Shown here: positions 14,183 to 31,213 of the stretch, one piece after another
Position numbering within the stretch: position 1 is the first letter of the stretch
How the letters are laid out: the number at the start of each line of letters is the position of its first letter
The notes under the pieces: generated by a model
Database searches by the model: none
Told to the model about the DNA's origin: nothing
What the model saw: only the letters and a program-made list of their open reading frames with translations
Source: a virus
Reading direction: 5' to 3' (one strand)
IMG/VR virus record: IMGVR_UViG_3300033067_002067
Coordinates: 9,301 to 73,300 of that record
Length of the DNA stretch: 64,000 bases
Translations under genes and position numbers: made by a program

Positions 14183-14682
14183 TGGGAATTAAAGGGCAAA
14201 GAGGCGGCAGTAAACCAGCGTCTATTGAAAAGCGATTTTGGTCAAAAGTCAAAGTTGTAGACAACAGTTGTTGGGAGTGGCAAGGATCAAAAGATAGAGA
14301 TGGATATGGTCAAGCATTTCATGATCAAAAATTTATTGCTGCACACCGATTGTCATGGTTAGTTCATAAAGGCAATCTGCCTAATTTATTTGTATGCCAT
14401 AAATGCGATAATCCTTCTTGTGTCAATCCGGATCATCTTTTTCTAGGTACTAATTCTGACAACATGTTAGATATGGTCAAGAAAGGAAGAGCACCTAACA
14501 GAAAAGGATCCAACCATGGCATGGCAAAATTAAATGAAGACAAAGTAAAAGAAATAAAAAGGTTACTATCTAACGGTAGTACAATGTATGCTGTAGCTAA
14601 AGCGTATAATGTAACATTTGGTACAATTCGAAATATTAAAATGATAAAACTTGGACACATGTGCAGGTTTAAAACAAAGTAA
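14182..14682 (+). CDS. HNH endonuclease (HNH_3/AP2-like)
   Basis: WEWQGSKDRDGYG...HRLSW...CHKCDNPSCVNPDHLFLGTNSDN core; C-terminal helix-turn-helix-like tail. Confidence 0.75.
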   Translation: MGIKGQRGGSKPASIEKRFWSKVKVVDNSCWEWQGSKDRDGYGQAFHDQKFIAAHRLSWLVHKGNLPNLFVCHKCDNPSCVNPDHLFLGTNSDNMLDMVKKGRAPNRKGSNHGMAKLNEDKVKEIKRLLSNGSTMYAVAKAYNVTFGTIRNIKMIKLGHMCRFKTK

Positions 14683-17265: not shown

Positions 17266-18129
17266 ATGCGCATTGGTTTTATGAGCGATTTGCATTTGGA
17301 GTTTAGAAATAAGCATCCAAAGCTTTATCAAGACAATCCTGAAAACTATGGCGATGTTCTTATTCTAGCTGGCGATACTGTGCTGGCTAGATATCTGCCT
17401 GATTATATGACAGATGCTAACGCTCGTTCTTTCAAGAAGCTTTTGAACCTCCTGGAAGAAAAGCTGTTCAGTAAGTATACGCATGTGTTTATGGTTGCAG
17501 GCAATCACGAACATTATAATGGTATCTTTTCACGTACCGTTCCTGAGATGAAGAAGTATTTCGAAGGCCCTGGTAAGAACGTCAAGGTTTTTGATAACGA
17601 CTTTGTCGATATTGGTGATGTTCGATTTGTAGGTTCTACTCTGTGGGCAGATTTCCATAAGGGTAATCCTGTAAGTATGGATAACTGTCGCCATGGTATG
17701 AACGATTTCCGTCTTATCTATCGTCAGAATCCTCTCGAATTGACTTATGTCGATCGAATGGATCCTTTTGCTGGTGCTATCACTCCTGATTTTATTCTGT
17801 CTGAGCATACTATTGCAAAGCAGTATATTAACGAAGTGATCAAGACTGATAAGGACGTTTTCGTTTTTACGCATCACGCTCCTACTTACCATGGTTCAGG
17901 TCGTGATCGCTATGGTACTGAGTTGGAAGGTGCTTATTGTTCGGATCTTTCTGAGATGATTCTCGATAATCCAAACATTAAGTACTGGATTCACGGCCAT
18001 ACGCATATTAACACAGACTATATGGTTGGTGATTGTCACGTAATCTCTAACCAGTGTGGTTATGCTAGTATGTTTGCTGGTGATCAACCTTGGGAAACGT
18101 TTGTAGGACCGCGACATGTCGAACTTTAA
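17266..18129 (+). CDS. calcineurin-like metallophosphoesterase
   Basis: SDLH ... LAGD ... GNHEH motif series. Confidence 0.75.
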   Translation: MRIGFMSDLHLEFRNKHPKLYQDNPENYGDVLILAGDTVLARYLPDYMTDANARSFKKLLNLLEEKLFSKYTHVFMVAGNHEHYNGIFSRTVPEMKKYFEGPGKNVKVFDNDFVDIGDVRFVGSTLWADFHKGNPVSMDNCRHGMNDFRLIYRQNPLELTYVDRMDPFAGAITPDFILSEHTIAKQYINEVIKTDKDVFVFTHHAPTYHGSGRDRYGTELEGAYCSDLSEMILDNPNIKYWIHGHTHINTDYMVGDCHVISNQCGYASMFAGDQPWETFVGPRHVEL

Positions 18130-18322
18130 TGAAAAAGAAGGGTATATGTGTCTCACTGATTATGAGTGGCATCTCGAGTCCTGGCCGCGGGATGAACTTG
18201 GTGCGATCGTATACCCTTCAGTAAAGGCACTTGAAGCGGCTCGCTCTTGTGTGCGAGACGAATGTGGTATTGTTAAGGTAAAGATTCAACTTGTAGAAGT
18301 TATTAAAGATGAAGATTTCTGA
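18116..18322 (+). CDS. hypothetical protein (68 aa)
   Basis: overlaps the previous stop. Confidence 0.4.
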   Translation: MSNFNEKEGYMCLTDYEWHLESWPRDELGAIVYPSVKALEAARSCVRDECGIVKVKIQLVEVIKDEDF

Positions 18323-18575
18323 ATCAGAGCTGCTCACTATTCTAACTGATAGTGCTCATCAAGTTGAAAGAGCAAAACCAGTTGAACCTAATTGGGTTGG
18401 TCCTGATCCAGAATGGTTTGAAATGTTTATTGAAACTGTACTGCTTCAGTTAGAGGCAAGAGAGGAATAAGATGAAATCTCCATACGGTAAGATCGCTTT
18501 CGTTTTGATTGGTTCGTTTTTGATGGCCATTATTCTTATGGCATCAGTAATTGCAACAGCTCCAGCTGGTACATA

Positions 18576-18977
18576 ATGAAACAAGATCTTAATAAGCTTC
18601 GTGAAAAGTATCCCAAAGTCTTTCCTCATGCTATTTCTCTTGATGAAGAAAAAGGCACCAACTTTAAGTGGTGGGGCTTTGAATGTGGCCCTGGCTGGTA
18701 CGAGATTCTCGATTCAGCTGGTCTAGCTATTACTGCTCTTATCAAGCAAGCTGAGAACGACAAGAAAAAGCTTAAGTTCGAGACTCTGCAGATCAAAGAA
18801 AAGTTTGGCGATCTTCGCTGGTATTATCGTTGCTCTGATAAAAGAGTAGATGGTATTATCTTAATGGCAGAAGTTATGTCAAGTAAGACTTGTGAAAAAT
18901 GTGGCAAGCCTGGTGCTATAGATACTGAAGCTACTTGGTATGCAGTACTTTGCAAACGTTGTAGGAATAAGAAATGA
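18576..18977 (+). CDS. hypothetical protein with C-terminal CxxC...CxxC zinc ribbon (133 aa)
   Basis: CEKCGK...CKRC. Confidence 0.5.
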   Translation: MKQDLNKLREKYPKVFPHAISLDEEKGTNFKWWGFECGPGWYEILDSAGLAITALIKQAENDKKKLKFETLQIKEKFGDLRWYYRCSDKRVDGIILMAEVMSSKTCEKCGKPGAIDTEATWYAVLCKRCRNKK

Positions 18978-19549
18978 CAATCTGGTTTATCAGTGACCCG
19001 CATTTTGGTCACGAAAATATCATCAAGTTCACTGGGCTAGATGGCAATAAGATTCGCCCAGGCTTCAATGATATTGATCACATGAATACTACTATCATCC
19101 AGCATTGGAATAGTATGATCTCACCTTCCGATAAGGTGTACTGCATGGGCGACTTTGGTAACCCAGATATTGCAGCGCAGCTTAATGGTAAGAAGCGTCT
19201 GATTCTAGGTAACCATGACGTTAAGTGGGATAAGCTGCATAAGTACTTTCAGAAGATCAGTCTAATTCGCTGGTTCAATGAAGATGGTGTTAACTTTGTA
19301 GTATCGCATTGTCCGCTTCGTTTTGATGCAGATTCTCTACCGCATCGTCAGGTACATTTTAATGTACATGGCCATATTCATGAGAAGCTTGTTAAGACTG
19401 AGCATGGCACTGATGATCTACGTTATGTGAATCTGTGTGTTGAACATACTGATTGGAAGCCGGTCAATATGGATCAACTAGTTAAGATGATGAAAGATCG
19501 TATGGAAGACCCGGCTTATAAAGCTCCAATCTATGGAAAGGTTTTGTAA
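18974..19549 (+). CDS. metallophosphoesterase (second copy, Ser/Thr-phosphatase-like)
   Basis: SDPHFGH ... MGDFGN ... GNHD ... HGHIHE. Confidence 0.75.
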   Translation: MTIWFISDPHFGHENIIKFTGLDGNKIRPGFNDIDHMNTTIIQHWNSMISPSDKVYCMGDFGNPDIAAQLNGKKRLILGNHDVKWDKLHKYFQKISLIRWFNEDGVNFVVSHCPLRFDADSLPHRQVHFNVHGHIHEKLVKTEHGTDDLRYVNLCVEHTDWKPVNMDQLVKMMKDRMEDPAYKAPIYGKVL

Positions 19550-19893
19550 TGAAAGAGCAATACGCGACTGTCTTTAATAAATTGCTTGAAAATGAATTTG
19601 CTGATGCAACAGGTACTGACCTTGTTGATATTGGTATGAGCTTTACTATCCTTGGTCTAGATAATCATGTTAAGGACGAAGGATATACCAAGGCCATTCA
19701 GGAAGCTAAGGTTGTTGCAGATGCTATGCGCTTGCTGGCGCAGGGGCTTGTACAAATGAAAGTAATGGAGGAGATGCTTGGACGAGAACGATTCCGAGAG
19801 CTTATCGAATCACATAAAGATGAAATCGAAGCGCGCTTTGAGGCGCTGCAGCGCCTTCGCGCTCATTGCGAAAAGCGAAATACCAGCGGGTAA
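19549..19893 (+). CDS. hypothetical protein (114 aa)
   Basis: ORF. Confidence 0.5.
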   Translation: MKEQYATVFNKLLENEFADATGTDLVDIGMSFTILGLDNHVKDEGYTKAIQEAKVVADAMRLLAQGLVQMKVMEEMLGRERFRELIESHKDEIEARFEALQRLRAHCEKRNTSG

Positions 19894-20090
19894 AAAGCCG
19901 CATTAAGAATACATGGGGCAAGTACTGGGCAGCTAACAATGAGTTTATTGAACAAGCTACCCAGCGCCATGTAGATAATGCTGCTAAGTGTTCATGCTGG
20001 ATGTGTGGACATAAGCGTAAAATCGAAGGAGCACCAATTCGTGAAAAACGAAAGCTCCAAGAAAAGATTAAGGACCAGCTAGATGAGTAA
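19866..20090 (+). CDS. hypothetical basic protein (74 aa)
   Basis: ORF. Confidence 0.4.
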   Translation: MRKAKYQRVKSRIKNTWGKYWAANNEFIEQATQRHVDNAAKCSCWMCGHKRKIEGAPIREKRKLQEKIKDQLDE

Positions 20091-20535
20091 AGTAGTAATA
20101 GCTGGTTCTCGTGATTTCTTTGACGAAGAGATTGTGTTCAATGGTATTGAGCGCGCTCTTCGTCTTTTTCGTACGTACCCTACAGAAGTATTTTCTGGTA
20201 AAGCTAAAGGTGTTGATAGGCTAGGAGAGCTTTGGGCTTATAAGAATAACGTTCCTATCAAGCCATTTCCTGCTGCTTGGAAGACACATGGGGCAGCTGC
20301 CGGTCCTATCCGCAATGCGCAAATGGCTTTCTTTTGTGATTATGGTATTGTTTTTGTAAATGAAGATTCACCAAATGGCTCTCCTGGTTCAAGAGGAATG
20401 GCCAAATTGCTAGCACAACACAAGAAGAAAAACATTGTGTTCTATATAAAGGACCAGAAAGTACGTGCAGTCTATCTGAATGGTGCCTATATTGATAGCA
20501 ATGATGTTGTAGTTGACACTATATTTTTCTCATAG
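20083..20535 (+). CDS. DprA/SLOG-like Rossmann-fold protein (DUF2493-type)
   Basis: N-terminal VVIAGSRDF ... GKAKGVDRLGELWA resembles the GSR-motif SLOG/DprA family; tentative. Confidence 0.45.
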   Translation: MSKVVIAGSRDFFDEEIVFNGIERALRLFRTYPTEVFSGKAKGVDRLGELWAYKNNVPIKPFPAAWKTHGAAAGPIRNAQMAFFCDYGIVFVNEDSPNGSPGSRGMAKLLAQHKKKNIVFYIKDQKVRAVYLNGAYIDSNDVVVDTIFFS

Positions 20536-20544
20536 GAGATAATC

Positions 20545-20748
20545 ATGGGTTGGGGTTCAGGCTCTTCCATCGCTGAAGAAATTATTAACAAGGTAACCAA
20601 GAGTAAGAAGTTTACTGACGATCAGTGTGAGTTTATTGCTGCTACTCTGATCAATGCATTTGAAGATGCTGATTGTGATACTCTAGACGAAGTGCGTAAT
20701 AAGATCTTTCAAAAAGTATGGCAGCAAATGAATGGTGCTGAGCAGTGA
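20545..20748 (+). CDS. hypothetical protein (67 aa)
   Basis: ORF. Confidence 0.45.
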   Translation: MGWGSGSSIAEEIINKVTKSKKFTDDQCEFIAATLINAFEDADCDTLDEVRNKIFQKVWQQMNGAEQ

Positions 20749-21011
20749 GTGAAGATAATCATGAAGAGTTAGAATGGGCAAAGAACTGCAAGTATGCAGT
20801 TATTGCTGTTAACTCCAGGGGTAAAATTCTTCATACTATTTTTCAGGATCATAAGCCTACCGAGAAAGATTTTCTTCATTATGAAGAAGAGCTCTCTACA
20901 GATGAAGAGCTAGGTATGGTTCATGAAGACGATTGGCATCTTATTGAAGCTAATGAGCCCACTTTAGCATTGTTAAAACAAAAGCTGTTTGAAGTTGAAA
21001 ATGAAAAGTGA
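20745..21011 (+). CDS. hypothetical acidic protein (88 aa)
   Basis: ORF. Confidence 0.45.
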   Translation: MSEDNHEELEWAKNCKYAVIAVNSRGKILHTIFQDHKPTEKDFLHYEEELSTDEELGMVHEDDWHLIEANEPTLALLKQKLFEVENEK

Positions 21012-21207
21012 TATTGTAGCTAAGTTGAGAAATAGAGCTCATATTCTGGGCCTAGATGGTTTTTATACCGAAGCCTGGATGAATGAAGAAGCGGCTGAAA
21101 CTATCGAATTCCTTCGCCAGGAAAACCAACGTCTTGAAGAATTAGTTGAAAAAGTCTCTAACGTAAGAATGATGAAACATGAGAGAAAATCTGCAGAACG
21201 AGATTAA
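20989..21207 (+). CDS. hypothetical protein (72 aa)
   Basis: ORF. Confidence 0.4.
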   Translation: MKLKMKSDIVAKLRNRAHILGLDGFYTEAWMNEEAAETIEFLRQENQRLEELVEKVSNVRMMKHERKSAERD

Positions 21208-21601
21208 TGAACAGCTTGCTATAGCACGTAAGCGTTTGCCTCATATGAGCATGACTGAAGTGATTGATTATGTAATTGACGAAGCTTATAAGCCTTATGA
21301 GAAAGGCAATATGGGCCGCCGCAATGTCGATGTTCATCGCAAGACATCTGATCGCGATCTCTTGAAAGCATTGAAGCGTTATAATAAAGCGACAGAACCT
21401 AAGCCTATTCCTTTCATTACAAATGGAAAGATTATGCTAACGAAAAATGAGATTGAAGCACTCTCTCAGTTTGTGCTTGAACGTCCTCATGAAGGTCCTT
21501 ATACTCTTACTATCAGCAATAAGAGCGGAATTGGCCAAGCTACAATTGTAGAAAGCTTGGCTGAAGAAACCAAAGATATTACTGACTACGATAAGTGGTA
21601 A
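21179..21601 (+). CDS. hypothetical protein (140 aa)
   Basis: ORF. Confidence 0.5.
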   Translation: MRENLQNEINEQLAIARKRLPHMSMTEVIDYVIDEAYKPYEKGNMGRRNVDVHRKTSDRDLLKALKRYNKATEPKPIPFITNGKIMLTKNEIEALSQFVLERPHEGPYTLTISNKSGIGQATIVESLAEETKDITDYDKW

Positions 21602-21664
21602 GCTAAATAAATTATGTAAGAGCCAGGGGAGTCCTGGTTCTCAAAGTCAATAGGAGTTATTGAC

Positions 21665-22705
21665 ATGTATGACTATCTCGTCTTTATTGGGCGATTCGCG
21701 CCCTACCATTCAGGCCACCATGCTGTGGTTTCTGAAGCTCTCAAAAGAACAAAGCATTTGATTATAGTGCTTGGCTCCGCAGGCCAACCTCGTTCTTTTA
21801 GAAATCCCCTCTTTACACACGAGCGCCGTGAAATTATACTTTCTACTCTTTTGGCAGAAGGTGTTGATACCGAGCGTGTCACGTTTGTAGAGGCTATTGA
21901 TTATCCCTATAATGATGAAAAGTGGATTACCCAGATTCAATCTCTGGTTAATAGCGTTGTCTTTCGTAAGTGGCAAGCCGGCCCTGTAAAGGTTGGTCTT
22001 GTTGGATTTGCAAAGGACCATTCTTCTTACTACCTCAAGATGTTTCCTCAGTGGGATTCAGTTAACGTAGAAACGAAAAATAAGTGCAACGCTACTGACT
22101 ATCGTAATCGCTTCTTCCGTAAGTTTACTCCTGATGAATTGGTTGATCACTTCTATATCAATCCAGTTCATAAGCAGAACGTTCTTTACTACTGCCAAAA
22201 GGCTGGTAAAGAAGGAATCTTCGAAGAAGCAGAGTATATCCACAATTACAAAATGTCATGGCAAGGCTCTCCTTTTCCTCCCACGTTTGTTTGCGTAGAT
22301 GCTCTTGTTACACAATCAGGACATATTCTGGTTGTTGAGCGAGGACATTCTCCCGGCAAAGGCCAGCTAGCTCTTCCTGGCGGTTTCGTTAATCAGAACG
22401 AACGACTGAAAGATGCTGCTGTACGTGAGCTATATGAAGAAACTGGACTTAAGGTTCCCAAGCCTGTTCTATATGGATCAATTTCAGACTCTAAGGTGTT
22501 TGATGATCCACATCGCTCACAGCGCGGAAGAACTATTACACAGTGTTTCCACTTCCAGCTTGCTGATCAAGAAAAGCTACCCAAAGTAAAGGGTGGTGAT
22601 GATGCTGCTCATGCTTTCTGGATGCCTTTTGCTGATTATGTAAAGGGTCGTGAGAAATTCTTTGAAGATCATTTCGCCATGATCGAAACAATGCTGGGAT
22701 TCTAA
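21665..22705 (+). CDS. bifunctional NMN adenylyltransferase / Nudix hydrolase (NadM/NatV-like)
   Basis: N-terminal (H/T)xGH nucleotidyltransferase motif [12 protein letters not shown]; C-terminal Nudix box RELYEETGL. Confidence 0.8.
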
Positions 22706-22716
22706 GGAGAACTACA

Positions 22717-24069
22717 ATGTCTAATATTATTCTAAACACCGACTCTTACAAGATGTCGCACTTCTTGCAGTACCCTCCGCAGACTGCATTTGTGAATAGC
22801 TATATTGCTTCCCGCGGAGTAACTGATGTAACGATTGCAGGTAAGAATCCAGAGATCGTTAATCTGGGTCTGCAGATGTTCATTATGGAGTATCTGCAGA
22901 AACCTATTACAATTGATGATATTGAAGAGGCTCGTTATATTGCTCAGCTTCATGGCGTACCTTTTAATGAAGAAGGATGGATGAAGGTTCTGAAAAAGCA
23001 TTCTGGTTTTCTTCCTATCGAGATTGAAGGTCTGCCTGAAGGTACTCCTGTACCTGTTGGAACTACTCAGTATCAGGTTCGTAATACTGATCCTGAACTT
23101 CCTTGGGTAACGAGCTATATTGAGACTGCATTGCTTCGCGCAATTTGGTATCCTTCTACTGTTGCTACTATCTCACGAGAGATTAAGAAGGACATCAAGT
23201 ACTGGCTCGATAAGACTGCAATGGATACAGCTTCTGTTCTTCCGTTCCGTCTGCATGACTTCGGAGCTCGTGGTGTTAGCTCCAAAGAAGGTGCTGGTAT
23301 TGGTGGTCTAGCTCATATTGTTAACTTTAGCGGTACTGATACTATCGAAGCCCTGCAGTATGCATTCCATTACTACTATGCACATGGCATGCCTGCATTC
23401 TCTATTCCAGCTGCTGAACACAGCACTATTACAAGCTGGGGTAAGGAAAACGAGGCTGAAGCATATCGCAATATGCTAAAGCAGTTTGGTAAACCTGGTG
23501 CTCTAGTAGCTGTTGTATCTGACTCTTATGACATCTATAATGCTTGTGAAAAGATTTGGGGTGAGACTCTACATGATGAAGTACTTCGTACTGGCGCTAC
23601 AGTTGTTGTTCGACCTGACTCTGGTTACCCTGTTACCGTTGTCAATAGGGTACTCGATATCCTGGGTGATAAGTTCGGTTATGTAGAGAATCAGAAGGGC
23701 TATAAGGTACTTAACTCTGCTGTTCGCGTTATTCAGGGTGATGGTGTAGACAAGCAATCTATTACTGGTATCCTAATGACAATGGCAGAGAACGGTTGGT
23801 CTGCTGAGAACGTTGCATTTGGTATGGGTGGTGCTCTTCTGCAGAAGGTAAATCGCGATACATTCAAGTATGCCATGAAGGCTTCTGCTATCAAGAAGCA
23901 GAATGATATTTACTGGTCCGATGTATACAAGCAACCAGTAACTGATTCTATGAAGGTATCAAAGCGCGGTATTCAAACGGACGAAAGGTTCTTGACTTTC
24001 TATGAGAATGGTAATACAATGAATATTATTAGCTTTGATCAAGTTCGAGCGAATGCAGAAGTCAAATAA
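22717..24069 (+). CDS. nadV: nicotinamide phosphoribosyltransferase (NadV/NAMPT)
   Basis: N-terminal ILNTDSYKMSHF and overall 450-aa NAMPT-family pattern; adjacent to the NMNAT gene. Confidence 0.8.
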   Translation: MSNIILNTDSYKMSHFLQYPPQTAFVNSYIASRGVTDVTIAGKNPEIVNLGLQMFIMEYLQKPITIDDIEEARYIAQLHGVPFNEEGWMKVLKKHSGFLPIEIEGLPEGTPVPVGTTQYQVRNTDPELPWVTSYIETALLRAIWYPSTVATISREIKKDIKYWLDKTAMDTASVLPFRLHDFGARGVSSKEGAGIGGLAHIVNFSGTDTIEALQYAFHYYYAHGMPAFSIPAAEHSTITSWGKENEAEAYRNMLKQFGKPGALVAVVSDSYDIYNACEKIWGETLHDEVLRTGATVVVRPDSGYPVTVVNRVLDILGDKFGYVENQKGYKVLNSAVRVIQGDGVDKQSITGILMTMAENGWSAENVAFGMGGALLQKVNRDTFKYAMKASAIKKQNDIYWSDVYKQPVTDSMKVSKRGIQTDERFLTFYENGNTMNIISFDQVRANAEVK

Positions 24070-24228: not shown

Positions 24229-24879
24229 ATGAAAGTACATTTTGGTAGATATCGCGAACATTGGATCTCTCCCTATAAGCTTCTTGAGAAGATTGTCTTT
24301 TGGAAGGATTGGGAGAAGTATCACGCTGAACATGAAGATGATGTCTGGTGGGTTGAAAAAGCAACTGATATTCTAGGCCCGCTTTGTCGCGGCTATAATA
24401 GCGTAATGGGTACTCTATTTCCTCGCAAGATCAAGGTTCGTATTGACCCCTGGGATACCTGGGGCATGTATAATGATCTAGCACTAATCATCCTGCCTAT
24501 GCTTATTCAGCTTCAGAAGACTAAGCATGGTGCACCTTATGTTGATGATGCAGACGTGCCAGATGATCTTAAGAGTACAGCTGCTCCACCCAAAGAGAAC
24601 GAATGGGATACAGACGATAATCATTTTAAGCGCTGGGATTGGATTCTCGCTGAAATGATCTGGGCGTTTGATTCTATTGTCAATGAGGATAAGTATGAAG
24701 ATACTTTCTGGATCCAGCGCGGTGAAGGAATGCATAGCGAGAAGCGTGAAGACGGAAATTATGAAATTAAGTGGGGGATTGAACCCAAGCTAGATCGCGA
24801 AAAGCGTGATGCGCATTATGCTCGTCAGGAAAATGGCCTCAAGCTATTTGGTAAGTATTACAGAGGACTATGGGACTAA
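24229..24879 (+). CDS. hypothetical protein (216 aa)
   Basis: ORF. Confidence 0.5.
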   Translation: MKVHFGRYREHWISPYKLLEKIVFWKDWEKYHAEHEDDVWWVEKATDILGPLCRGYNSVMGTLFPRKIKVRIDPWDTWGMYNDLALIILPMLIQLQKTKHGAPYVDDADVPDDLKSTAAPPKENEWDTDDNHFKRWDWILAEMIWAFDSIVNEDKYEDTFWIQRGEGMHSEKREDGNYEIKWGIEPKLDREKRDAHYARQENGLKLFGKYYRGLWD

Positions 24880-25385
24880 TGAATATTGAACTAATTACTC
24901 GTGACAATTGTGAGTTCTGTGCCAAGGCAAAAGAATTCTTGGCCATTGAGCAGATTGCATACTATGAATACAATCTGACAAAAGGCGATATTACTCGCGA
25001 TGAGGTATATGCCAAGCTAGGAAAGTCTACAGATGAAAAAGTTACTCTTCCTGTTGTTTTTATTGATACTGAGTATATTGGCGGCTATGTGGAGTTGGCT
25101 GAGTATTTTGCCGGGCTTGCTATAGAGCGTCAAGCACTAACAGAAGCACTTAAGAATGGAGTTTTACATCTTGAGTTCATTAAAGCTGATGGTTCTCTTC
25201 GTAAGATGAACGCCACCCTAAATAAACATAAGATCTTTAATGACGATACGTTCTCTTCTTTCCGTGAGGAAGATGAGAATAAAGGTTCACCACACAAGCT
25301 GTCTGTTTATGATATCGACAAAAGTGCTTGGCGTTCTTTTCGTTTTGATAGACTTAAGTCATGGAAACAGGTGGAATTGTCATGA
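24870..25385 (+). CDS. glutaredoxin (NrdC/NrdH-like, CEFC active site) fused to an uncharacterised C-terminal domain
   Basis: ELITRDNCEFCAKAKEFL ... VVFID..YIGGY parallels T4 NrdC; extra ~85-aa C-terminal part. Confidence 0.65.
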   Translation: MGLMNIELITRDNCEFCAKAKEFLAIEQIAYYEYNLTKGDITRDEVYAKLGKSTDEKVTLPVVFIDTEYIGGYVELAEYFAGLAIERQALTEALKNGVLHLEFIKADGSLRKMNATLNKHKIFNDDTFSSFREEDENKGSPHKLSVYDIDKSAWRSFRFDRLKSWKQVELS

Positions 25386-25804
25386 GTACAGGTATTACAT
25401 TTGGCGCATGGGATCTTCTTCATGCTGGCCATCATCATTTTCTCCGCTCATGTGCAATGGAATGCGATGAATTCATCGTAGGCCTCCATATCGACCCTTC
25501 AATTGAACGACCTGATATTAAAGAAAAACCCGTGCAAGGTGTAATGGAAAGATACTGGCAGCTGCAGAATCTAGATTTTATTGCTGCAATTATTCCATAT
25601 GAAACAGAGAAAGATCTTGCAAATATTCTTGCAATGACTCAGCCTTTAGACTATTATTTCCTTGGTACAGATTATGCTCAAATTAAACTCCCTGAGCGTA
25701 TTTATAATATACTTGATCACTTTGACATTGAGATCAAGTATATCCATCGTTTGCATGATTTTTCCTCAACCGATCTTAGAAAGAGAATTAGAGCTAAGAA
25801 ATGA
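25382..25804 (+). CDS. cytidylyl/adenylyl-transferase-like nucleotidyltransferase (RfaE domain II / TagD-like; candidate heptose-1-P nucleotidyltransferase)
   Basis: GAWDLLHAGHHHFL ... FIVGLHID matches the (H/T)xGH plus LIVAV..D pattern of HldE-C/TagD; internal Met start chosen for its SD. Confidence 0.65.
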   Translation: MSTGITFGAWDLLHAGHHHFLRSCAMECDEFIVGLHIDPSIERPDIKEKPVQGVMERYWQLQNLDFIAAIIPYETEKDLANILAMTQPLDYYFLGTDYAQIKLPERIYNILDHFDIEIKYIHRLHDFSSTDLRKRIRAKK

Positions 25805-26418
25805 TTAAACCAAAGATTGTAACTGAACATCCGATTGCATATGAAAGTCATGATCATCTCGTTCCTAAGGGAACCGTGAATGACAACACCAAGAACGAAG
25901 CTTATGTAAAGGAGCTCATCTCTCGCTTTGACGAGAATATGAAGTATATGGACCTGGGCTGTGCTGGTGGTGGCTTTGTAGCTCAGTTCCTAGAAAGAGG
26001 CGTATTTGCCGTAGGTGTAGAGGGTTCAGACCTTAACCAGAGAACCAAGAGAGCGGAATGGGCTGTGTGGCCTGATTATCTGTTTACTGCAGATATCACT
26101 AAGCCATTTCACTTCGTAGATGAGGACGATCGTCAGATTTTATTTGAAGCTCTCAGTGCATTTGACGTACTAGAGCATATTCATAAGCACGATCTTCCTA
26201 ACCTAATCACCAATATCAATCGCAACCTGCGAATTGGTGGTGTGTTTGTAGCTTCTATTGCTACATTTGAAGATAAGGACTATCACGTAACACTGGAAGA
26301 AAAGCCCTGGTGGAATGAGCAATTTGAAGCTCTTGGCTTCCGTGAGACCTGGACACTTAAGCAGTTTGGTCGCTGGTCTTCTATTTGCGTTGTATATGAG
26401 AAGGTAAGTGATGTATAA
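25801..26418 (+). CDS. SAM-dependent methyltransferase
   Basis: motif I MDLGCAGGGFV and following acidic residue in a Rossmann pattern. Confidence 0.6.
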   Translation: MIKPKIVTEHPIAYESHDHLVPKGTVNDNTKNEAYVKELISRFDENMKYMDLGCAGGGFVAQFLERGVFAVGVEGSDLNQRTKRAEWAVWPDYLFTADITKPFHFVDEDDRQILFEALSAFDVLEHIHKHDLPNLITNINRNLRIGGVFVASIATFEDKDYHVTLEEKPWWNEQFEALGFRETWTLKQFGRWSSICVVYEKVSDV

Positions 26419-27511
26419 AAGCAATCAGAAGAAAGCAATTGTAACTGGTATTTCTGGTTACATTGCTCCTATTCTCTGCAGAATGTTGAAAGAGCAGGGG
26501 TACTTTGTCATTGGATGTGACGTCACTGCAGTTGGTGGTCGACTGGGCGATGCTCATAAGAAGTATGTTGACATTGTCAAGTACGTAGACTTCTGCAGTG
26601 ATGAGTTTATTAAACTAATTAGCAATTATAAAGATGCAACAGTATTTCATTTAGCAGCCAGTTCACTGCTGGGGCCTTCATTCTATAACCCTGAAGAATA
26701 TTTCTTTAACAATACTGTCAAGACTTTTAAGCTGCTTGAATTCTTGAATCGTAATAGGTTCGGAAGATTCATTTTTGCTTCTACAGCAGCTGTATATTCT
26801 GAAAAGCAGATTAGAAAGTCTGTATGGAAGGGATTGTTTGGTCAAAATGATCTTGAACAGATGCAATACCCTGTCAAAGAGACTGATATCATCAACCCTC
26901 CCAACAACTATGGCCTATCCAAGTTGATGACAGAGCAGATGATTGATTCAATTACCAAAGCTCAAAATATCAACCATGAAGTATATGGCAAAACTAACTT
27001 GATGGAAGCTTTTTCATTCCGCTTCTTCAATGTCATCGGTGGATATGAAAATATGGGGCATCGTTTTGATACTCCTCACATTATGAGCCAGTTGATTGAG
27101 TCGTACCGTCTCTCTAATAGACCTTTCTATATCAATGGTGACAATTATAAAACTAAGGACGGTACTTGCGTAAGAGACTATGTACATGTAATGGATGTTT
27201 GCCGCGCAATGATTCATGTTGATCTGTGGGCAGATGATCAAAATTTTCGCGAGGCTCGACACCTGAAGTTTAATCTTGGAACAGGTAAAGGTCATACCAA
27301 CAAAGAAGTTGTTGATACTTTCTGTAAAATTACAAGCCCGCATATCGATAAGAAACCCTTTGATGTAAAGATGCGTGGTCCTAGACCCGGCGATCCTCCT
27401 TATCTGGTTGCAGACCCTAAACTCTTCATTGACACTACAGGCTTCACCTATAAATATTCAGATAATCTTGAATCAATGATTGAAAGTGCATGGAGAGCAT
27501 ATAATGTTTGA
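26408..27511 (+). CDS. NAD-dependent sugar epimerase/dehydratase (SDR, GalE-like)
   Basis: N-terminal IVTGISGYIAP glycine motif; catalytic YGLSK (YxxxK). Confidence 0.75.
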   Translation: MMYKSNQKKAIVTGISGYIAPILCRMLKEQGYFVIGCDVTAVGGRLGDAHKKYVDIVKYVDFCSDEFIKLISNYKDATVFHLAASSLLGPSFYNPEEYFFNNTVKTFKLLEFLNRNRFGRFIFASTAAVYSEKQIRKSVWKGLFGQNDLEQMQYPVKETDIINPPNNYGLSKLMTEQMIDSITKAQNINHEVYGKTNLMEAFSFRFFNVIGGYENMGHRFDTPHIMSQLIESYRLSNRPFYINGDNYKTKDGTCVRDYVHVMDVCRAMIHVDLWADDQNFREARHLKFNLGTGKGHTNKEVVDTFCKITSPHIDKKPFDVKMRGPRPGDPPYLVADPKLFIDTTGFTYKYSDNLESMIESAWRAYNV

Positions 27512-28502
27512 AGAGAATGAAATCTCAGAAAAGTCAATGGGCGGTACAGAGCAATGCAAGCGCTCTATTGCTGCTAGAATCCCAGCAGAACTAAACGATA
27601 ACTTCCAGGTCATTTGCTCACGTGTTCGTGAATTGCAGAATGATAAGATTCGCGTGTATTGGGTGCACGATCTTGCTACAGACCCAGAAACTAACCATCT
27701 CAAGGATGAAGCTTCAAGAGCTCGATTCCACAAAATTGTATTCTGTGGCAATTGGCAGTACAACCAGTACTTGCAGATTGGCGTCCCCCCAACCAATCAG
27801 GTAGCTGTAATTGATACGCCAATTGTCCCATTTGATATAAAGCCCAAGAAGTTTGATGATGGGAAGATCCGAATCATCTATACATCAACTCCCCAGCGCG
27901 GTCTTTCGATGCTGGTACCTGTGTTTACCAAGCTGACAGAGAAGTACGAGAATATTCATCTTGATGTATTCTCTTCATTTGGCATCTATGGGTGGCCAGA
28001 GGCTGACAAGCAGTTTGAAGAAATCTATGCAATTTGTCGTTCGCATCCCCAGATTACTTACCATGGTTTCCAGCCTAACGAAAAGGTTCGTGAAGCTCTG
28101 GAAAATGCGCATATCTTTGCATACCCATCAATTTGGCCAGAATGTAACTCTCGCTCTCTCATCGAAGCAATGAGCGCTGGTCTTCTTTGCTTGCATCCCA
28201 ACTTTGCTGGTCTATCTGATACGTCTGGCAATCTAACTGCTATGTACCAGTGGGATGAAGACGGCAACAGACATATCAACCTATTCTATCAGCTTCTTGA
28301 TCAGTCAATTAAGATTGTGCAGGAAGAGCAAACTCAGAATTATCTGGCATTCGTTAAGGCGTACGCCGATACTAGATATAGTATTGATAAAATTGCTGGC
28401 CAATGGCAGGACATGATGAGTGTATTGAACGCTCAGTATCCTACAGTTGAATCTCGAGCAATTCCTAAGTTTGAACCTACCTTTATGTATCGAGCAGGAT
28501 AA
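27480..28502 (+). CDS. GT-B (GT4-like) glycosyltransferase
   Basis: C-terminal E..S...IEAMSAGL.C nucleotide-sugar binding motif typical of GT4/GT-B. Confidence 0.65.
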   Translation: MKVHGEHIMFEENEISEKSMGGTEQCKRSIAARIPAELNDNFQVICSRVRELQNDKIRVYWVHDLATDPETNHLKDEASRARFHKIVFCGNWQYNQYLQIGVPPTNQVAVIDTPIVPFDIKPKKFDDGKIRIIYTSTPQRGLSMLVPVFTKLTEKYENIHLDVFSSFGIYGWPEADKQFEEIYAICRSHPQITYHGFQPNEKVREALENAHIFAYPSIWPECNSRSLIEAMSAGLLCLHPNFAGLSDTSGNLTAMYQWDEDGNRHINLFYQLLDQSIKIVQEEQTQNYLAFVKAYADTRYSIDKIAGQWQDMMSVLNAQYPTVESRAIPKFEPTFMYRAG

Positions 28503-29479
28503 TGATCGTCACTAAGACACCTCTGAGAATTAGTTTCTTTGGAGGCGGGTCTGACATTCCACAATTCTATAACAAGAAACCTGGATTAGTCATTTCTACC
28601 TCTATTAACCGTTCTATCAAAATTGCTCTAAACCGATGTGAGACGGATCATGTCCGTCTCTCTTATTCAACGTTTGAGCAAGTGACCACAGCTGATAAGC
28701 TGAAGCACGATAGAGTACGTGAAGCTCTTCTTTCAAATGGCATTCAGTCCAATATTGAGATCACGTCGTTCTCAGACGTTCCTACTAAGGGAACTGGCCT
28801 GGGGTCATCTTCAACATTTACAGTTGGTCTTCTCAAGGCCATTCTTGAGCATAGAGCGTACACCTATAATAAGACCGATCTTGCCGAACTGGCATGCGAA
28901 ATAGAGATTGATAAGCTAAATGAGCCAATTGGAAAACAAGATCAGTATGCTGCTGCTTTTGGCGGCTTTAATATCATTGAGTTTGATAGCTCTGGTGTAG
29001 AGATTCGTCCTCTCAATCTCGGCCGTGATAAGATTAGAGAGCTTGAGAAGAACTTATACTGCTACTCAACTGGCATTACTCGAGCTGCATCAGATGTGCT
29101 GAAGACACAAGTCAAATCGTTAGGCAAGAGCTCATCCACAACGTTTGAGAATACTTCCATCATGGTTGATATTGCCAAGCTAGCACATGTTCACCTGATG
29201 AAGGGGCGACTATCTGATTTTGGTGGCTTGCTTAATGAGACTTGGAATCTGAAGAAGAAGCTTTCGCCTGGCATGAGCAATGCTACGATTGATGAAATGT
29301 ACAAGACAGCTATAATGAATGGTGCGTTGGGAGGCAAGCTGCTGGGGGCAGGAGGAGGCGGCTATATGCTGTTCTATGTTCCTGAGAGCAACGAATTCAA
29401 ATTCCGTGATGCTATGCGTCACTACAAAGAGTTCTATTTCAGGTTCACTGAAGAGGGGTCACAGTCATGGGTAATATGA
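28502..29479 (+). CDS. hddA: GHMP sugar kinase (D-glycero-D-manno-heptose 7-phosphate kinase HddA-like)
   Basis: PLRISFFGGGSD N-terminus and GTGLGSSSTF GHMP ATP-binding loop. Confidence 0.7.
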   Translation: MIVTKTPLRISFFGGGSDIPQFYNKKPGLVISTSINRSIKIALNRCETDHVRLSYSTFEQVTTADKLKHDRVREALLSNGIQSNIEITSFSDVPTKGTGLGSSSTFTVGLLKAILEHRAYTYNKTDLAELACEIEIDKLNEPIGKQDQYAAAFGGFNIIEFDSSGVEIRPLNLGRDKIRELEKNLYCYSTGITRAASDVLKTQVKSLGKSSSTTFENTSIMVDIAKLAHVHLMKGRLSDFGGLLNETWNLKKKLSPGMSNATIDEMYKTAIMNGALGGKLLGAGGGGYMLFYVPESNEFKFRDAMRHYKEFYFRFTEEGSQSWVI

Positions 29480-30060
29480 CCGATTATCTTGACTTTTATA
29501 CAACAAATATTATATCAGCTCTTTCTAGAGTAGATACGCAAAAGGTTGAAGAAGCCTGCGATTTAATTCGTAGTAACTTATATGCGCCTGTATTCGTATT
29601 TGGTAATGGTGGTTCTGCTGCCATTGCTGAACATTTCACAGTTGATTATAATAAAGGCATTTGGCAAGATACTAAAATCAATACTAGAGCGATAAGCTTA
29701 GTTTCAAATGTTTCTCTATTAACTGCATTAGCTAACGATACTAATTACGCATTTGTTTTCTCGAAACAAATCGATTCATATAATCCAAATGGTAATGGAT
29801 TAGCTATTGCCATTTCATCTTCTGGCAATTCTCCTAATATATTAAACGGATTAGAAGCAGCTAAACGCAATAATATTAAGTCAATAGCTTTAGTTGGTTT
29901 TGATGGTGGTAACGTTAAAAGCAACAATTTAGCTGACGTTATTATACATGTAAAGAAGTATAATTATGGTATTGTTGAAGATACTCATATGGTTATACTT
30001 CATTCTATTATACAAAAACTTCGTTTAGAATATTCATTAGTTGGAGAACCTAAACTCTAA
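29467..30060 (+). CDS. gmhA: sedoheptulose-7-phosphate isomerase (GmhA, SIS domain)
   Basis: FGNGGSAAIAEHF, ISSSGNS, GFDGG, E..H..I.H motifs align with E. coli GmhA. Confidence 0.75.
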   Translation: MGNMTDYLDFYTTNIISALSRVDTQKVEEACDLIRSNLYAPVFVFGNGGSAAIAEHFTVDYNKGIWQDTKINTRAISLVSNVSLLTALANDTNYAFVFSKQIDSYNPNGNGLAIAISSSGNSPNILNGLEAAKRNNIKSIALVGFDGGNVKSNNLADVIIHVKKYNYGIVEDTHMVILHSIIQKLRLEYSLVGEPKL

Positions 30061-30142
30061 CTCATTGATGTACAACAATAGTACCCGCTTGATCAGCCTT
30101 GCAGGATAGTCTATATTATAGATAATGAAGAGGAGACTATAG

Positions 30143-31213
30143 ATGGCTAGAACTAAGCGAATTGATAAGTCTGAATTTGTTGTAATGGGTGATGAGCCTA
30201 ATCTCAAAGGCAAGATTACCCGTATGCAGCTTTGTAATGCGCTTAACTGGTATAACCATTTCTATTCTGCTACAGTAACCAAGCCTCGTAATCCCGATTG
30301 TGTAGGCTGGATTATTGAGTATATGAAGTCCAAGAAGTATACGCCTGCACAAATCAAAGCGTTTTCGTCTCTTTCTGATAAAGAGATTCCGACTACTCTT
30401 TGTTCAATGGCACGTATGCTGAATCGTGGTGCTATTTTTGAGAACTCTCTTGATGAACGTATTCATCAGCTTCTCGAAAACCTTAAGTACAAGAAGCCTG
30501 AGGCTAAAGTTGTTAAGGTTGAAGTAAAGCGTCCTAACCCTATCGTTATTCTGTTTGACAGCATTCTCGATAAGTTCTATGATTCGAACTATCGCGTTAT
30601 GCCTGATTTGACGAATGTCGAAATCTTTGGCAATAAGGAAGAGCATGCTTTTGCTAGCCAGCTCTATTCTGATTTGGCCGAAGAAGTAAAGGGTAAGGAT
30701 CCTGAAGGCTATACTCATATTAGTGCTTTGGGTCTGAAGCGTTATCGTGAACTTCTCAATAACCTTAACGCTCTTCTGAATAAGAAGAAGGTTCGTACTA
30801 AGTCTGGCAAACCTCGCAAGGTTCGTACTCCCAAAAAGAAATCTGCACAGCAGCTTACTGCTCTGCTTAAGTATAAGCAGGCTGAGAAGATTGGTAAAGA
30901 TACGTTTGAAAGCGTTGATCCTGCGAAGATTCTCGAATCTACTGTGGTTTGGGTTTACAACAGCAAGAAGCGTTTGTTGACTAAATACGTAAGCAATACT
31001 AGCCCGCTTACTGTTAAGCGCACCACGCTTGGTAACTTTGATCCCAAGCAATCTATGGCCAAGAAGATTCGTAAACCCGAAATTGTTATTGCACAAGTTG
31101 CAACTGAGGGTAAAGCTTCCGTAGCACGTCTGTTCAATAACATTAAAGCCAAGCCCCAGAAGGTTAAGGGCCGGATGAACGATGATTCTCTAATCGTCAG
31201 GACGTTTAAATGA
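30143..31213 (+). CDS. hypothetical K-rich protein (356 aa)
   Basis: long ORF, SD gaggag. Confidence 0.55.
   Translation: MARTKRIDKSEFVVMGDEPNLKGKITRMQLCNALNWYNHFYSATVTKPRNPDCVGWIIEYMKSKKYTPAQIKAFSSLSDKEIPTTLCSMARMLNRGAIFENSLDERIHQLLENLKYKKPEAKVVKVEVKRPNPIVILFDSILDKFYDSNYRVMPDLTNVEIFGNKEEHAFASQLYSDLAEEVKGKDPEGYTHISALGLKRYRELLNNLNALLNKKKVRTKSGKPRKVRTPKKKSAQQLTALLKYKQAEKIGKDTFESVDPAKILESTVVWVYNSKKRLLTKYVSNTSPLTVKRTTLGNFDPKQSMAKKIRKPEIVIAQVATEGKASVARLFNNIKAKPQKVKGRMNDDSLIVRTFK

Follow-up and report, generated by a model that had tools for sequence, protein, structure and literature searches.

A divergent NARP2-type NAD+ salvage cassette in an uncultivated T4-like phage and its SLOG and metallophosphoesterase neighbours

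The NARP2 pathway of Vibrio phage KVP40 consists of NadV (Nampt) and NatV (Nmnat-Nudix) (Lee et al. 2017; Osterman et al., 10.1101/2024.02.11.579819). Its enzymology and its defeat of the type I Thoeris and DSR2 systems have been shown experimentally (10.1101/2024.02.11.579819). A NARP3 pathway has since been described, and according to published surveys 22% of medium-sized phages and 33% of jumbo phages carry NadV. A pair of genes of this type, natV and nadV, is present within positions 17266-24069 of a 64 kb stretch of a phage genome (IMG/VR record IMGVR_UViG_3300033067_002067). This whole stretch is referred to here as the window, and all counts on window genes cover these 64 kb. Upstream of the pair are a 150 aa protein of the SLOG superfamily and two metallophosphoesterases (MPE1 and MPE2). 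The NARP2 cassette is probably the one identifiable functional unit of the region, with the SLOG protein and the two MPEs being separate, widespread phage accessory genes.

The product of natV scores 411.5 bits against the NCBIfam model NF003786, 'bifunctional NMN adenylyltransferase/Nudix hydrolase', which has a cut-off of 397, and it aligns end to end with the Synechocystis NadM-Nudix protein (PDB 2qjo, E=7e-74). Its HxGH motif (H15-S-G-H18; aa 15-18, nt 21707-21718) is intact and its Nudix box is perfect (G240...E246...R254-E255...E258-E259...G261; aa 240-262, nt 22382-22450). There are natV homologs in 485 phage records, the best phage match being 48.8% identical. The product of nadV scores 563 bits against NF006629, with a cut-off of 405, and matches both Pfam NAMPT_N and NAPRTase. 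It aligns with bacterial NAMPT (7yqo, E=1.3e-137) and with human NAMPT (E of about 1e-116), and the alignment keeps the HDFGARGVSS and AHxVNFxGTDT segments. Its best phage match, at 57.7% identity, is from Mesorhizobium phage Cp1R7A-A1. The two genes are on the same strand, separated by 11 nt. A sequence-only reading of this DNA had proposed a NAD+ salvage pair at this site, and with both proteins over curated equivalog cut-offs, aligned over their full length and intact in their motifs, the cassette is genuine. The homology of NatV and NadV and the integrity of their catalytic motifs are direct observations; natV and nadV are a KVP40-type NARP2 cassette, a divergent copy of an already known pathway, with its activity here predicted by homology.

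The copy in the window shares with that of KVP40 the same two enzymes and domain architectures, their adjacency on one strand in the order NatV then NadV, and a place in the accessory region of a large T4-like phage. It differs in being divergent in sequence and in coming from an uncultivated relative of the cyanomyoviruses. The Synechocystis slr0787 NadM-Nudix protein (2qjo) and the bacterial and human NAMPT enzymes (7yqo, 2gvj) are likewise similar over their full length, including HxGH, the Nudix box and the NAMPT active-site segments, although these are cellular enzymes whereas the window copies are phage-encoded. The gene order is a general one. From 71 NatV-centred viral loci, collapsed to 51 lineages, with co-location taken as within 10 kb, NadV was found near NatV in 41 lineages, in every case on the strand of NatV. 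Raw tblastn results placed it downstream of NatV in 52 of 53 loci, and the order is also seen in cultured phages. One lineage, made up of four IMG/VR contigs (L094, L117, L104 and L090), has a 189 aa ORF (open reading frame), an MPE1-like gene, a small ORF and NatV, with NadV absent within 10 kb downstream. This layout is unexpected because published work has NatV and NadV nearly always together. No Adps- or Prs-like families, as in NARP1, are among the 25 strongest of the 46 Pfam families matched by the remaining window genes, nor do the 25 strongest families elsewhere in the window include other genes of NAD or ADP-ribose metabolism (Macro, NADAR, ART, Sir2 or Prs).

NadV would convert nicotinamide and phosphoribosyl pyrophosphate (PRPP) to nicotinamide mononucleotide, which the N-terminal domain of NatV would adenylate to NAD+. 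The Nudix domain of NatV would cleave ADP-ribose to AMP and ribose-5-phosphate, the latter of which the host could return to PRPP. Phage replication would thereby have a continued supply of NAD+ and, judging from KVP40, the cassette may blunt NAD+-depleting defences such as Thoeris, DSR and SIR2-HerA. We infer the enzyme activities and the counter-defence effect of this copy from the published work on KVP40. That same work shows that NARP2 lifts NAD+ even in cells free of any defence system (10.1101/2024.02.11.579819), because the pathway starts from PRPP, and this would suit a cassette that is chiefly a metabolic booster, providing NAD+ for phage enzymes and raising host metabolism, with counter-defence not its primary role. 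The same arm of the window encodes NAD-dependent sugar-nucleotide enzymes, including an epimerase at 26408-27511, as well as further auxiliary metabolic genes such as PhoH and AdoMet decarboxylase. The two roles are, however, not mutually exclusive, counter-defence has been demonstrated directly with the KVP40 genes, and the DNA ligase in the window is of the ATP-dependent type, so that the classic argument from NAD+-dependent ligases does not apply. A chiefly metabolic purpose is possible, if somewhat unlikely.

The SLOG protein begins with MSKVVIAGSRDF and matches PF10686 (YAcAr) with 50.2 bits against a cut-off of 28.2 (E=2.2e-13). Pfam describes this family, formerly DUF2493, as 'YspA, cpYpsA-related SLOG family'. 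The motifs GSR, SGxAxGxD, W...AGxxRN and SxG[TS] are present. The structural model has a Rossmannoid three-layer alpha/beta fold, closest to YpsA, ShosA/DprA, LOG and the SLOG domain of ThsA. The top structural matches belong without exception to the SLOG superfamily and include ShosA and DprA, and the match to the ThsA SLOG domain is weaker than those to YpsA, ShosA, DprA and LOG. A SLOG/DprA-like Rossmann domain had been suggested from the sequence, and the Pfam profile and the fold search both bear this out. The C-terminal tail (approximately aa 100-150) is lineage-specific and poorly modelled; an extension of about 35 aa at this end and a small insertion before the SxG motif are common only to the protein's two closest relatives.

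YAcAr proteins are very common in phages, with at least 575 stretches in viral contigs and 773 sequenced phage records. Most of these records are phages of 44-90 kb, including N4-like phages, 7-11-like phages and Cluster A mycobacteriophages, where the genes are annotated as 'DprA-like' or 'GTP-binding domain'. In ICP1 HelB the domain is fused to an SF1B helicase. The window protein belongs to the same family as mycobacteriophage D29 gp61-type proteins, phrog_289 and the C-terminus of ICP1 HelB, shares their motifs, and is stand-alone as in most phages. It differs from these relatives in its C-terminal extension and insertion, and in that its gene is in the accessory arm rather than in a replication module. 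Identity to YpsA (2nx2), DprA (3uqz, 4ljk, 3maj) and ShosA (8zva) is just 11-21%, and it lacks both the extra SAM and winged-helix domains found in DprA and the region through which ShosA dimerises. The SLOG domain of ThsA (7uxs), the gcADPR sensor of type I Thoeris, is a weaker match, and the window protein has neither SIR2 nor another effector domain.

The only matches at the sequence level in the PDB are to DprA proteins, aligned over GSR and SGxAxGxD, and these are marginal (E=0.003-0.015). The protein is not a DprA proper: it has no PF02481 match at E<=0.01 and its 150 aa leave no room for the accessory SAM/DML1 domains. The relationship is nonetheless close, as 7 of 53 SLOG homologs carry precomputed PF02481 matches; one homolog is fused to DUF4326. 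LOG-type phosphoribohydrolases have a PGGxGTxxE motif with a catalytic Glu. In the family alignment the corresponding stretch reads SxG[TS]xxM and contains no conserved Glu, and an assignment to this type was rejected. Most likely the GSR, GxD, RN and SxG loops of the protein would bind a nucleic acid or nucleotide that carries a phosphate, in the way of DprA and ShosA, where conserved arginines bind single-stranded DNA.

The neighbourhood of the YAcAr genes was compared with that of NatV in both directions, by tblastn and then by profile hidden Markov models that detect divergent YAcAr at E=1e-22. This second screen was prompted by a divergent YAcAr gene found in Cp1R7A-A1, and the counts were unchanged. 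A SLOG gene is within 10 kb of NatV in 2 of the 51 NatV lineages (L142 and L152). Conversely, among 66 SLOG-centred lineages, with the same distance limit, NatV is present in none or one and a NadV-like gene in four. Most phages that carry YAcAr are without NatV. With SLOG domains in 19-31% of medium and jumbo phages (PMC9503650) and about 10% of a genome inside a 20-kb span, the co-location is close to this rough chance estimate. The SLOG protein had been read as part of a NAD+ salvage neighbourhood, yet across lineages the two are not consistently linked. In the window, the SLOG gene and the MPEs are 1-4 kb upstream of the cassette, and it is likely that they are there by lineage happenstance. 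One relative (SLOG 66% identical) has retained the gene order MPE1, small ORFs, MPE2, 112 aa ORF, SLOG, small ORFs, whereas more distant phages have not; this is lineage synteny and not a conserved module.

When the three genes flanking YAcAr to the left and to the right (248 proteins) were assigned to Pfam families, these included Metallophos, ThyX, endonuclease VII, ribonucleotide reductase, SbcC-like ATPases, helicases, ligase, UvsY, primase-polymerase and the DNA polymerase III alpha subunit. One PARG and one Acb3 are the only neighbours related to immune signalling. In Cluster A mycobacteriophages, YAcAr is between a DnaB-like helicase and endonuclease VII/primase. Together with the helicase fusion and the DprA-only PDB matches, these neighbours favour DprA-like binding of phosphate or nucleic acid at least as much as sequestration of a signal. 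The idea that a free phage SLOG protein could be a signal sponge gains no support from the fold search, in which the model is unlike any solved sponge (none of the Tad1, Tad2, Acb2 and Acb4 kind among its top 60 fold matches). DprA-like nucleic-acid or nucleotide binding appears to fit the protein at least as well. PADLOC gives nothing for it.

MPE1 is a calcineurin-like protein with all five metal-binding motifs (DxH, GD, GNH[ED], H, GHxH) intact, and D8, H10, D37, N80, H81, H203, H245 and H247 are invariant across 40 homologs. A fold search found the phosphopantetheinyl hydrolase PptH as its closest fold. Identity to the Mycobacterium tuberculosis protein (Rv2795c, 6unc) is only 16%, and the likeness is one of fold. 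Single-sequence PDB searches had given marginal Dbr1 matches only. MPE1 is not of the ADPRibase-Mn type, to which it has no specific similarity past the shared fold. MPE2 has the metal-binding segments SDPHFGH, GDFG, GNHD and HGHIH, belongs to phrog_547, has homologs in 2097 phage records, and matches PDB 1xm7 (Aquifex aq_1665, function unknown) with E=7.7e-10. Both would be catalytically competent phosphodiesterases, to judge by these motifs. Hydrolysis of cyclic or ADP-ribose-type signals had been envisaged for the pair; nothing specific points there, MPE1 being PptH-like and not ADPRibase-Mn-like. PADLOC gives the MPEs weak partial matches to the candidate system PDC-S10 only. Homologs of MPE1 with 45-49% identity, on contigs of 140-166 kb, have unrelated accessory genes around them, and neither NARP2 nor SLOG is close by.

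The metallophosphoesterase Gp48 of mycobacteriophage A10ZJ24 damages host DNA, thereby silencing defence genes, and is required for overcoming defence (PMC12287305). Gp48 and its homolog A3JS8 gp53 resemble the window proteins as phage metallophosphoesterases; theirs are early-expressed and act in counter-defence (PMC12287305). MPE1 and MPE2 were rejected as members of the Gp48 family, with which they share superfamily motifs only (BLASTP E>=0.1, hhalign probability 23%).

Several observations weigh against the separation of the SLOG protein and the MPEs from the cassette. The distance between YAcAr and NatV-NadV is 1.6-2.4 kb in Mesorhizobium phage Cp1R7A-A1 and the loci L142 and L152. An MPE1 homolog occurs inside the 10 kb limit in 8 of 51 NatV lineages, compared with 2 of 66 around SLOG (Fisher p=0.02). 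These eight lineages are not independent, because four share one layout, and only L154 is clearly different, with NatV, NadV and MPE1 in direct succession. In viral genomes SLOG, Macro, NADAR and Nudix domains co-occur and fuse, and fusions with DUF4326 have been noted too (PMC9503650). These co-occurrences, reported by Iyer et al., and the DUF4326-fused homolog found here favour an ADP-ribose-related role for some viral SLOG proteins. Biochemical data on stand-alone phage YAcAr proteins, and experimental tests of counter-signalling, were absent from the literature searched.

The strongest form of such a link would be an integrated island against NAD-centred immunity, in which the SLOG protein sequesters or cleaves gcADPR or His-ADPR, the MPEs hydrolyse the signals or ADP-ribose, and NARP2 rebuilds NAD+. 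The counter-signalling part is not new, as Iyer et al. (2022; PMC9503650) predicted computationally that viral YpsA-like SLOG domains, which they called experimentally uncharacterised, act on cADPr-type signals. That prediction and the Macro, NADAR and DUF4326 fusions argue for the island, as do the presence of YAcAr within about 2.5 kb of NatV-NadV in the window as well as in the three loci above, and of Metallophos among the commoner NatV neighbours (4 of 150 neighbour proteins). It is nevertheless improbable, given that the co-location is rare and near chance, that the YAcAr phages mostly have no NatV, that the neighbour census is one of DNA metabolism with a single PARG and a single Acb3, that the fold search places ThsA behind YpsA, ShosA and DprA and finds no solved sponge, and that MPE1 is PptH-like with no specific similarity to ADPRibase-Mn.

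A smaller unit can also be considered, independent of NARP2, in which YAcAr binds a nucleic-acid end or nucleotide ligand and the MPE processes it. The metallophosphoesterases are the most frequent Pfam families among genes immediately upstream of or adjoining YAcAr (Metallophos and Metallophos_2, 7 and 4 of 150 proteins), and several lineages have one directly abutting YAcAr. In 7 of 66 lineages an MPE2 homolog is found no more than 10 kb from YAcAr, in three cases directly upstream, and overlapping ORFs connect MPE2 to SLOG in the window. In Rhizobium phage P10VF (L160, NC_025429; 8621-9738) the YAcAr gene P10VF_037 overlaps by 4 nt P10VF_038, a homolog that is 31.7% identical to the window MPE1. 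Cluster A mycobacteriophages have YAcAr and an MPE in one replication module, this MPE being one that harms host DNA and overcomes defence (PMC12287305). Such a module could serve the processing of DNA ends or single-stranded DNA in replication or recombination, or damage to host DNA as for Gp48. Yet only about 10% of lineages have the pairing, and the MPEs concerned come from at least three unrelated subfamilies. MPE2 is equally frequent around NatV (4 of 51), so that it is not clearly enriched relative to another accessory region. Mre11/SbcD may account for some of the Metallophos neighbours, since SMC_N/AAA_23 partners are also present. A two-component module of this kind is thus very doubtful, and the same holds for its broader form, a recurrent two-gene unit, sometimes beside NARP2, in which a small MPE destroys what a SLOG 'reader' has bound, either a nucleotide-derived immune signal or the end of a DNA or RNA molecule. 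The SLOG-MPE and MPE1-NatV pairings are weak leads, not findings, and are the only mildly new element. In the related Rhizobium phages AF3, P9VFCI and RHph_N34, a 'GTP-binding domain' (phrog_289-type) gene is under or beside the MPE1 match.

The features of the region are listed in Table 1. Its five named ORFs, as first called from the sequence, were recovered at the same coordinates on the + strand with strong family matches, and with such scores their homology is not a matter of chance matching.

Table 1. Features of the region 17266-24069 of the window
Feature	Position	Strand	Description
MPE1	17266..18129	+	287 aa; Pfam Metallophos E=3.5e-16; PptH-like fold
Cys-rich ORF, 133 aa	18576..18977	+	overlaps MPE2 by 4 nt; no family match
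MPE2	18974..19549	+	191 aa; Metallophos_2 E=6.4e-9; aq_1665-like
Two small ORFs, 114 aa and 74 aa	19549..20090	+	connect MPE2 with SLOG through overlapping stop and start codons
Stand-alone YAcAr SLOG protein	20083..20535	+	150 aa; PF10686 50.2 bits
Four small ORFs between SLOG and natV	20545..21601	+	no family matches
natV/nadM	21665..22705	+	346 aa; CTP_transf_like and NUDIX; NF003786
nadV (NAMPT)	22717..24069	+	450 aa; NAMPT_N and NAPRTase; NF006629

Homologs of the Cys-rich ORF recur near NatV in three loci (L100, L108 and L142). The ORF at 19866-20090 matches phrog_4499 (function unknown). The relative L081 retains an equivalent of the 114 aa ORF and the first two of the four small ORFs that follow SLOG.

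The window includes T4-type core genes (gp32, gp59, RNase H, baseplate proteins and the late-transcription coactivator), its gp32 being 57% identical to those of marine cyanomyoviruses. Megablast found nothing that matches the region among 50,697 phage records, hence there is no annotated close relative. From the core genes, the cyanomyovirus-like gp32 and the lack of a near-identical sequenced phage it follows that this is an uncultivated T4-like myovirus, and the region is a portion of the accessory-gene arm of this relative of the cyanomyoviruses. Nearly all window genes are on the + strand up to approximately 51.6 kb. Upstream of the region are a tRNA array, an HNH endonuclease, DUF3307 and a GroES-like gene; downstream are a glutaredoxin-WYL_2 fusion and then a cluster of sugar-nucleotide and glycosyltransferase genes. 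The description of the region as a block is weaker, as the dense + strand genes, mostly overlapping or abutting (gaps of -29 to +159 nt), run unbroken beyond 17266-24069 on both sides. A promoter and terminator scan was uninformative, with 30 promoter-like sites where 22 were expected.

The stop codon of the SLOG gene is the only TAG among the 51 + strand genes (TAA 36, TGA 14, TAG 1). The next ORF (67 aa) is in the SLOG frame after a 9-nt stop-free spacer (20533-20748), so that read-through would give a 221 aa fusion. The TAG, the 9-nt in-frame spacer and the ATG are kept in L081 (3794-4009). ARAGORN calls a tRNA with a CUA anticodon at 10165-10240 (+), labelled Pyl and of the amber-suppressor type, with a clean cloverleaf, an encoded CCA and a minimum free energy of -27.1 kcal/mol. 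This putative tRNA has a non-canonical T-loop and does not match the Rfam tRNA model even at E<=10. Read-through by it could generate the SLOG fusion, a more speculative idea than the SLOG-MPE module. Programmed read-through is not favoured, with the tRNA unsupported by Rfam and the TAG overlapping the Shine-Dalgarno sequence of the next gene (TAGGAG), an overlap that may be sufficient to explain the conservation of the TAG.

In total, 25 tRNA calls were made by ARAGORN between 73 and 16789, amid small ORFs and HNH endonucleases (821-1216 and 14182-14682). The tRNA-Ile(UAU) call at 2491-2583 is unusually long, at 93 nt. Within this tRNA region, 11280-12722 encodes a 480 aa DUF2828/DUF7788 protein (phrog_850, 'RNA-binding protein'), a type that also adjoins MPE1 in L155 and occurs among the NatV neighbours. 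In Cp1R7A-A1 (L161, MT188704; 6594-11727) the order is an HD protein, annotated as a (p)ppGpp synthase/hydrolase, NatV, NadV, four ORFs and then YAcAr 1.6 kb downstream. Two genes past NadV in the window, at 24870-25385, is the glutaredoxin-WYL_2 (Sm-like SH3) fusion. It is kept in contigs with an identical NadV, and 5 of 51 NatV lineages have a homolog of it inside the 10 kb limit. The genes at 25361-31213 include a cytidylyltransferase-like gene, a SAM methyltransferase, a NAD-dependent epimerase/dehydratase and glycosyltransferases, and the window also has SIS and GHMP-kinase genes. This glycosylation cluster could modify DNA or the cell surface.

The cassette provides a divergent environmental example of NARP2 from a cyanomyovirus relative, in agreement with surveys in which NAD+ salvage is common in large phages, and the copy opens no new question in itself. 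Should the SLOG-MPE module be real, its presence beside NARP2 in this lineage and in Cp1R7A-A1 would suggest that NAD-centred immunity is countered in layers. A useful negative is that YAcAr/SLOG proteins, although so common in phages, show no neighbourhood link to NAD+ salvage and are mostly in contexts of DNA metabolism, and this should temper the published prediction, echoed in the sequence-only reading, of SLOG proteins as antagonists of ADP-ribose-type signals.

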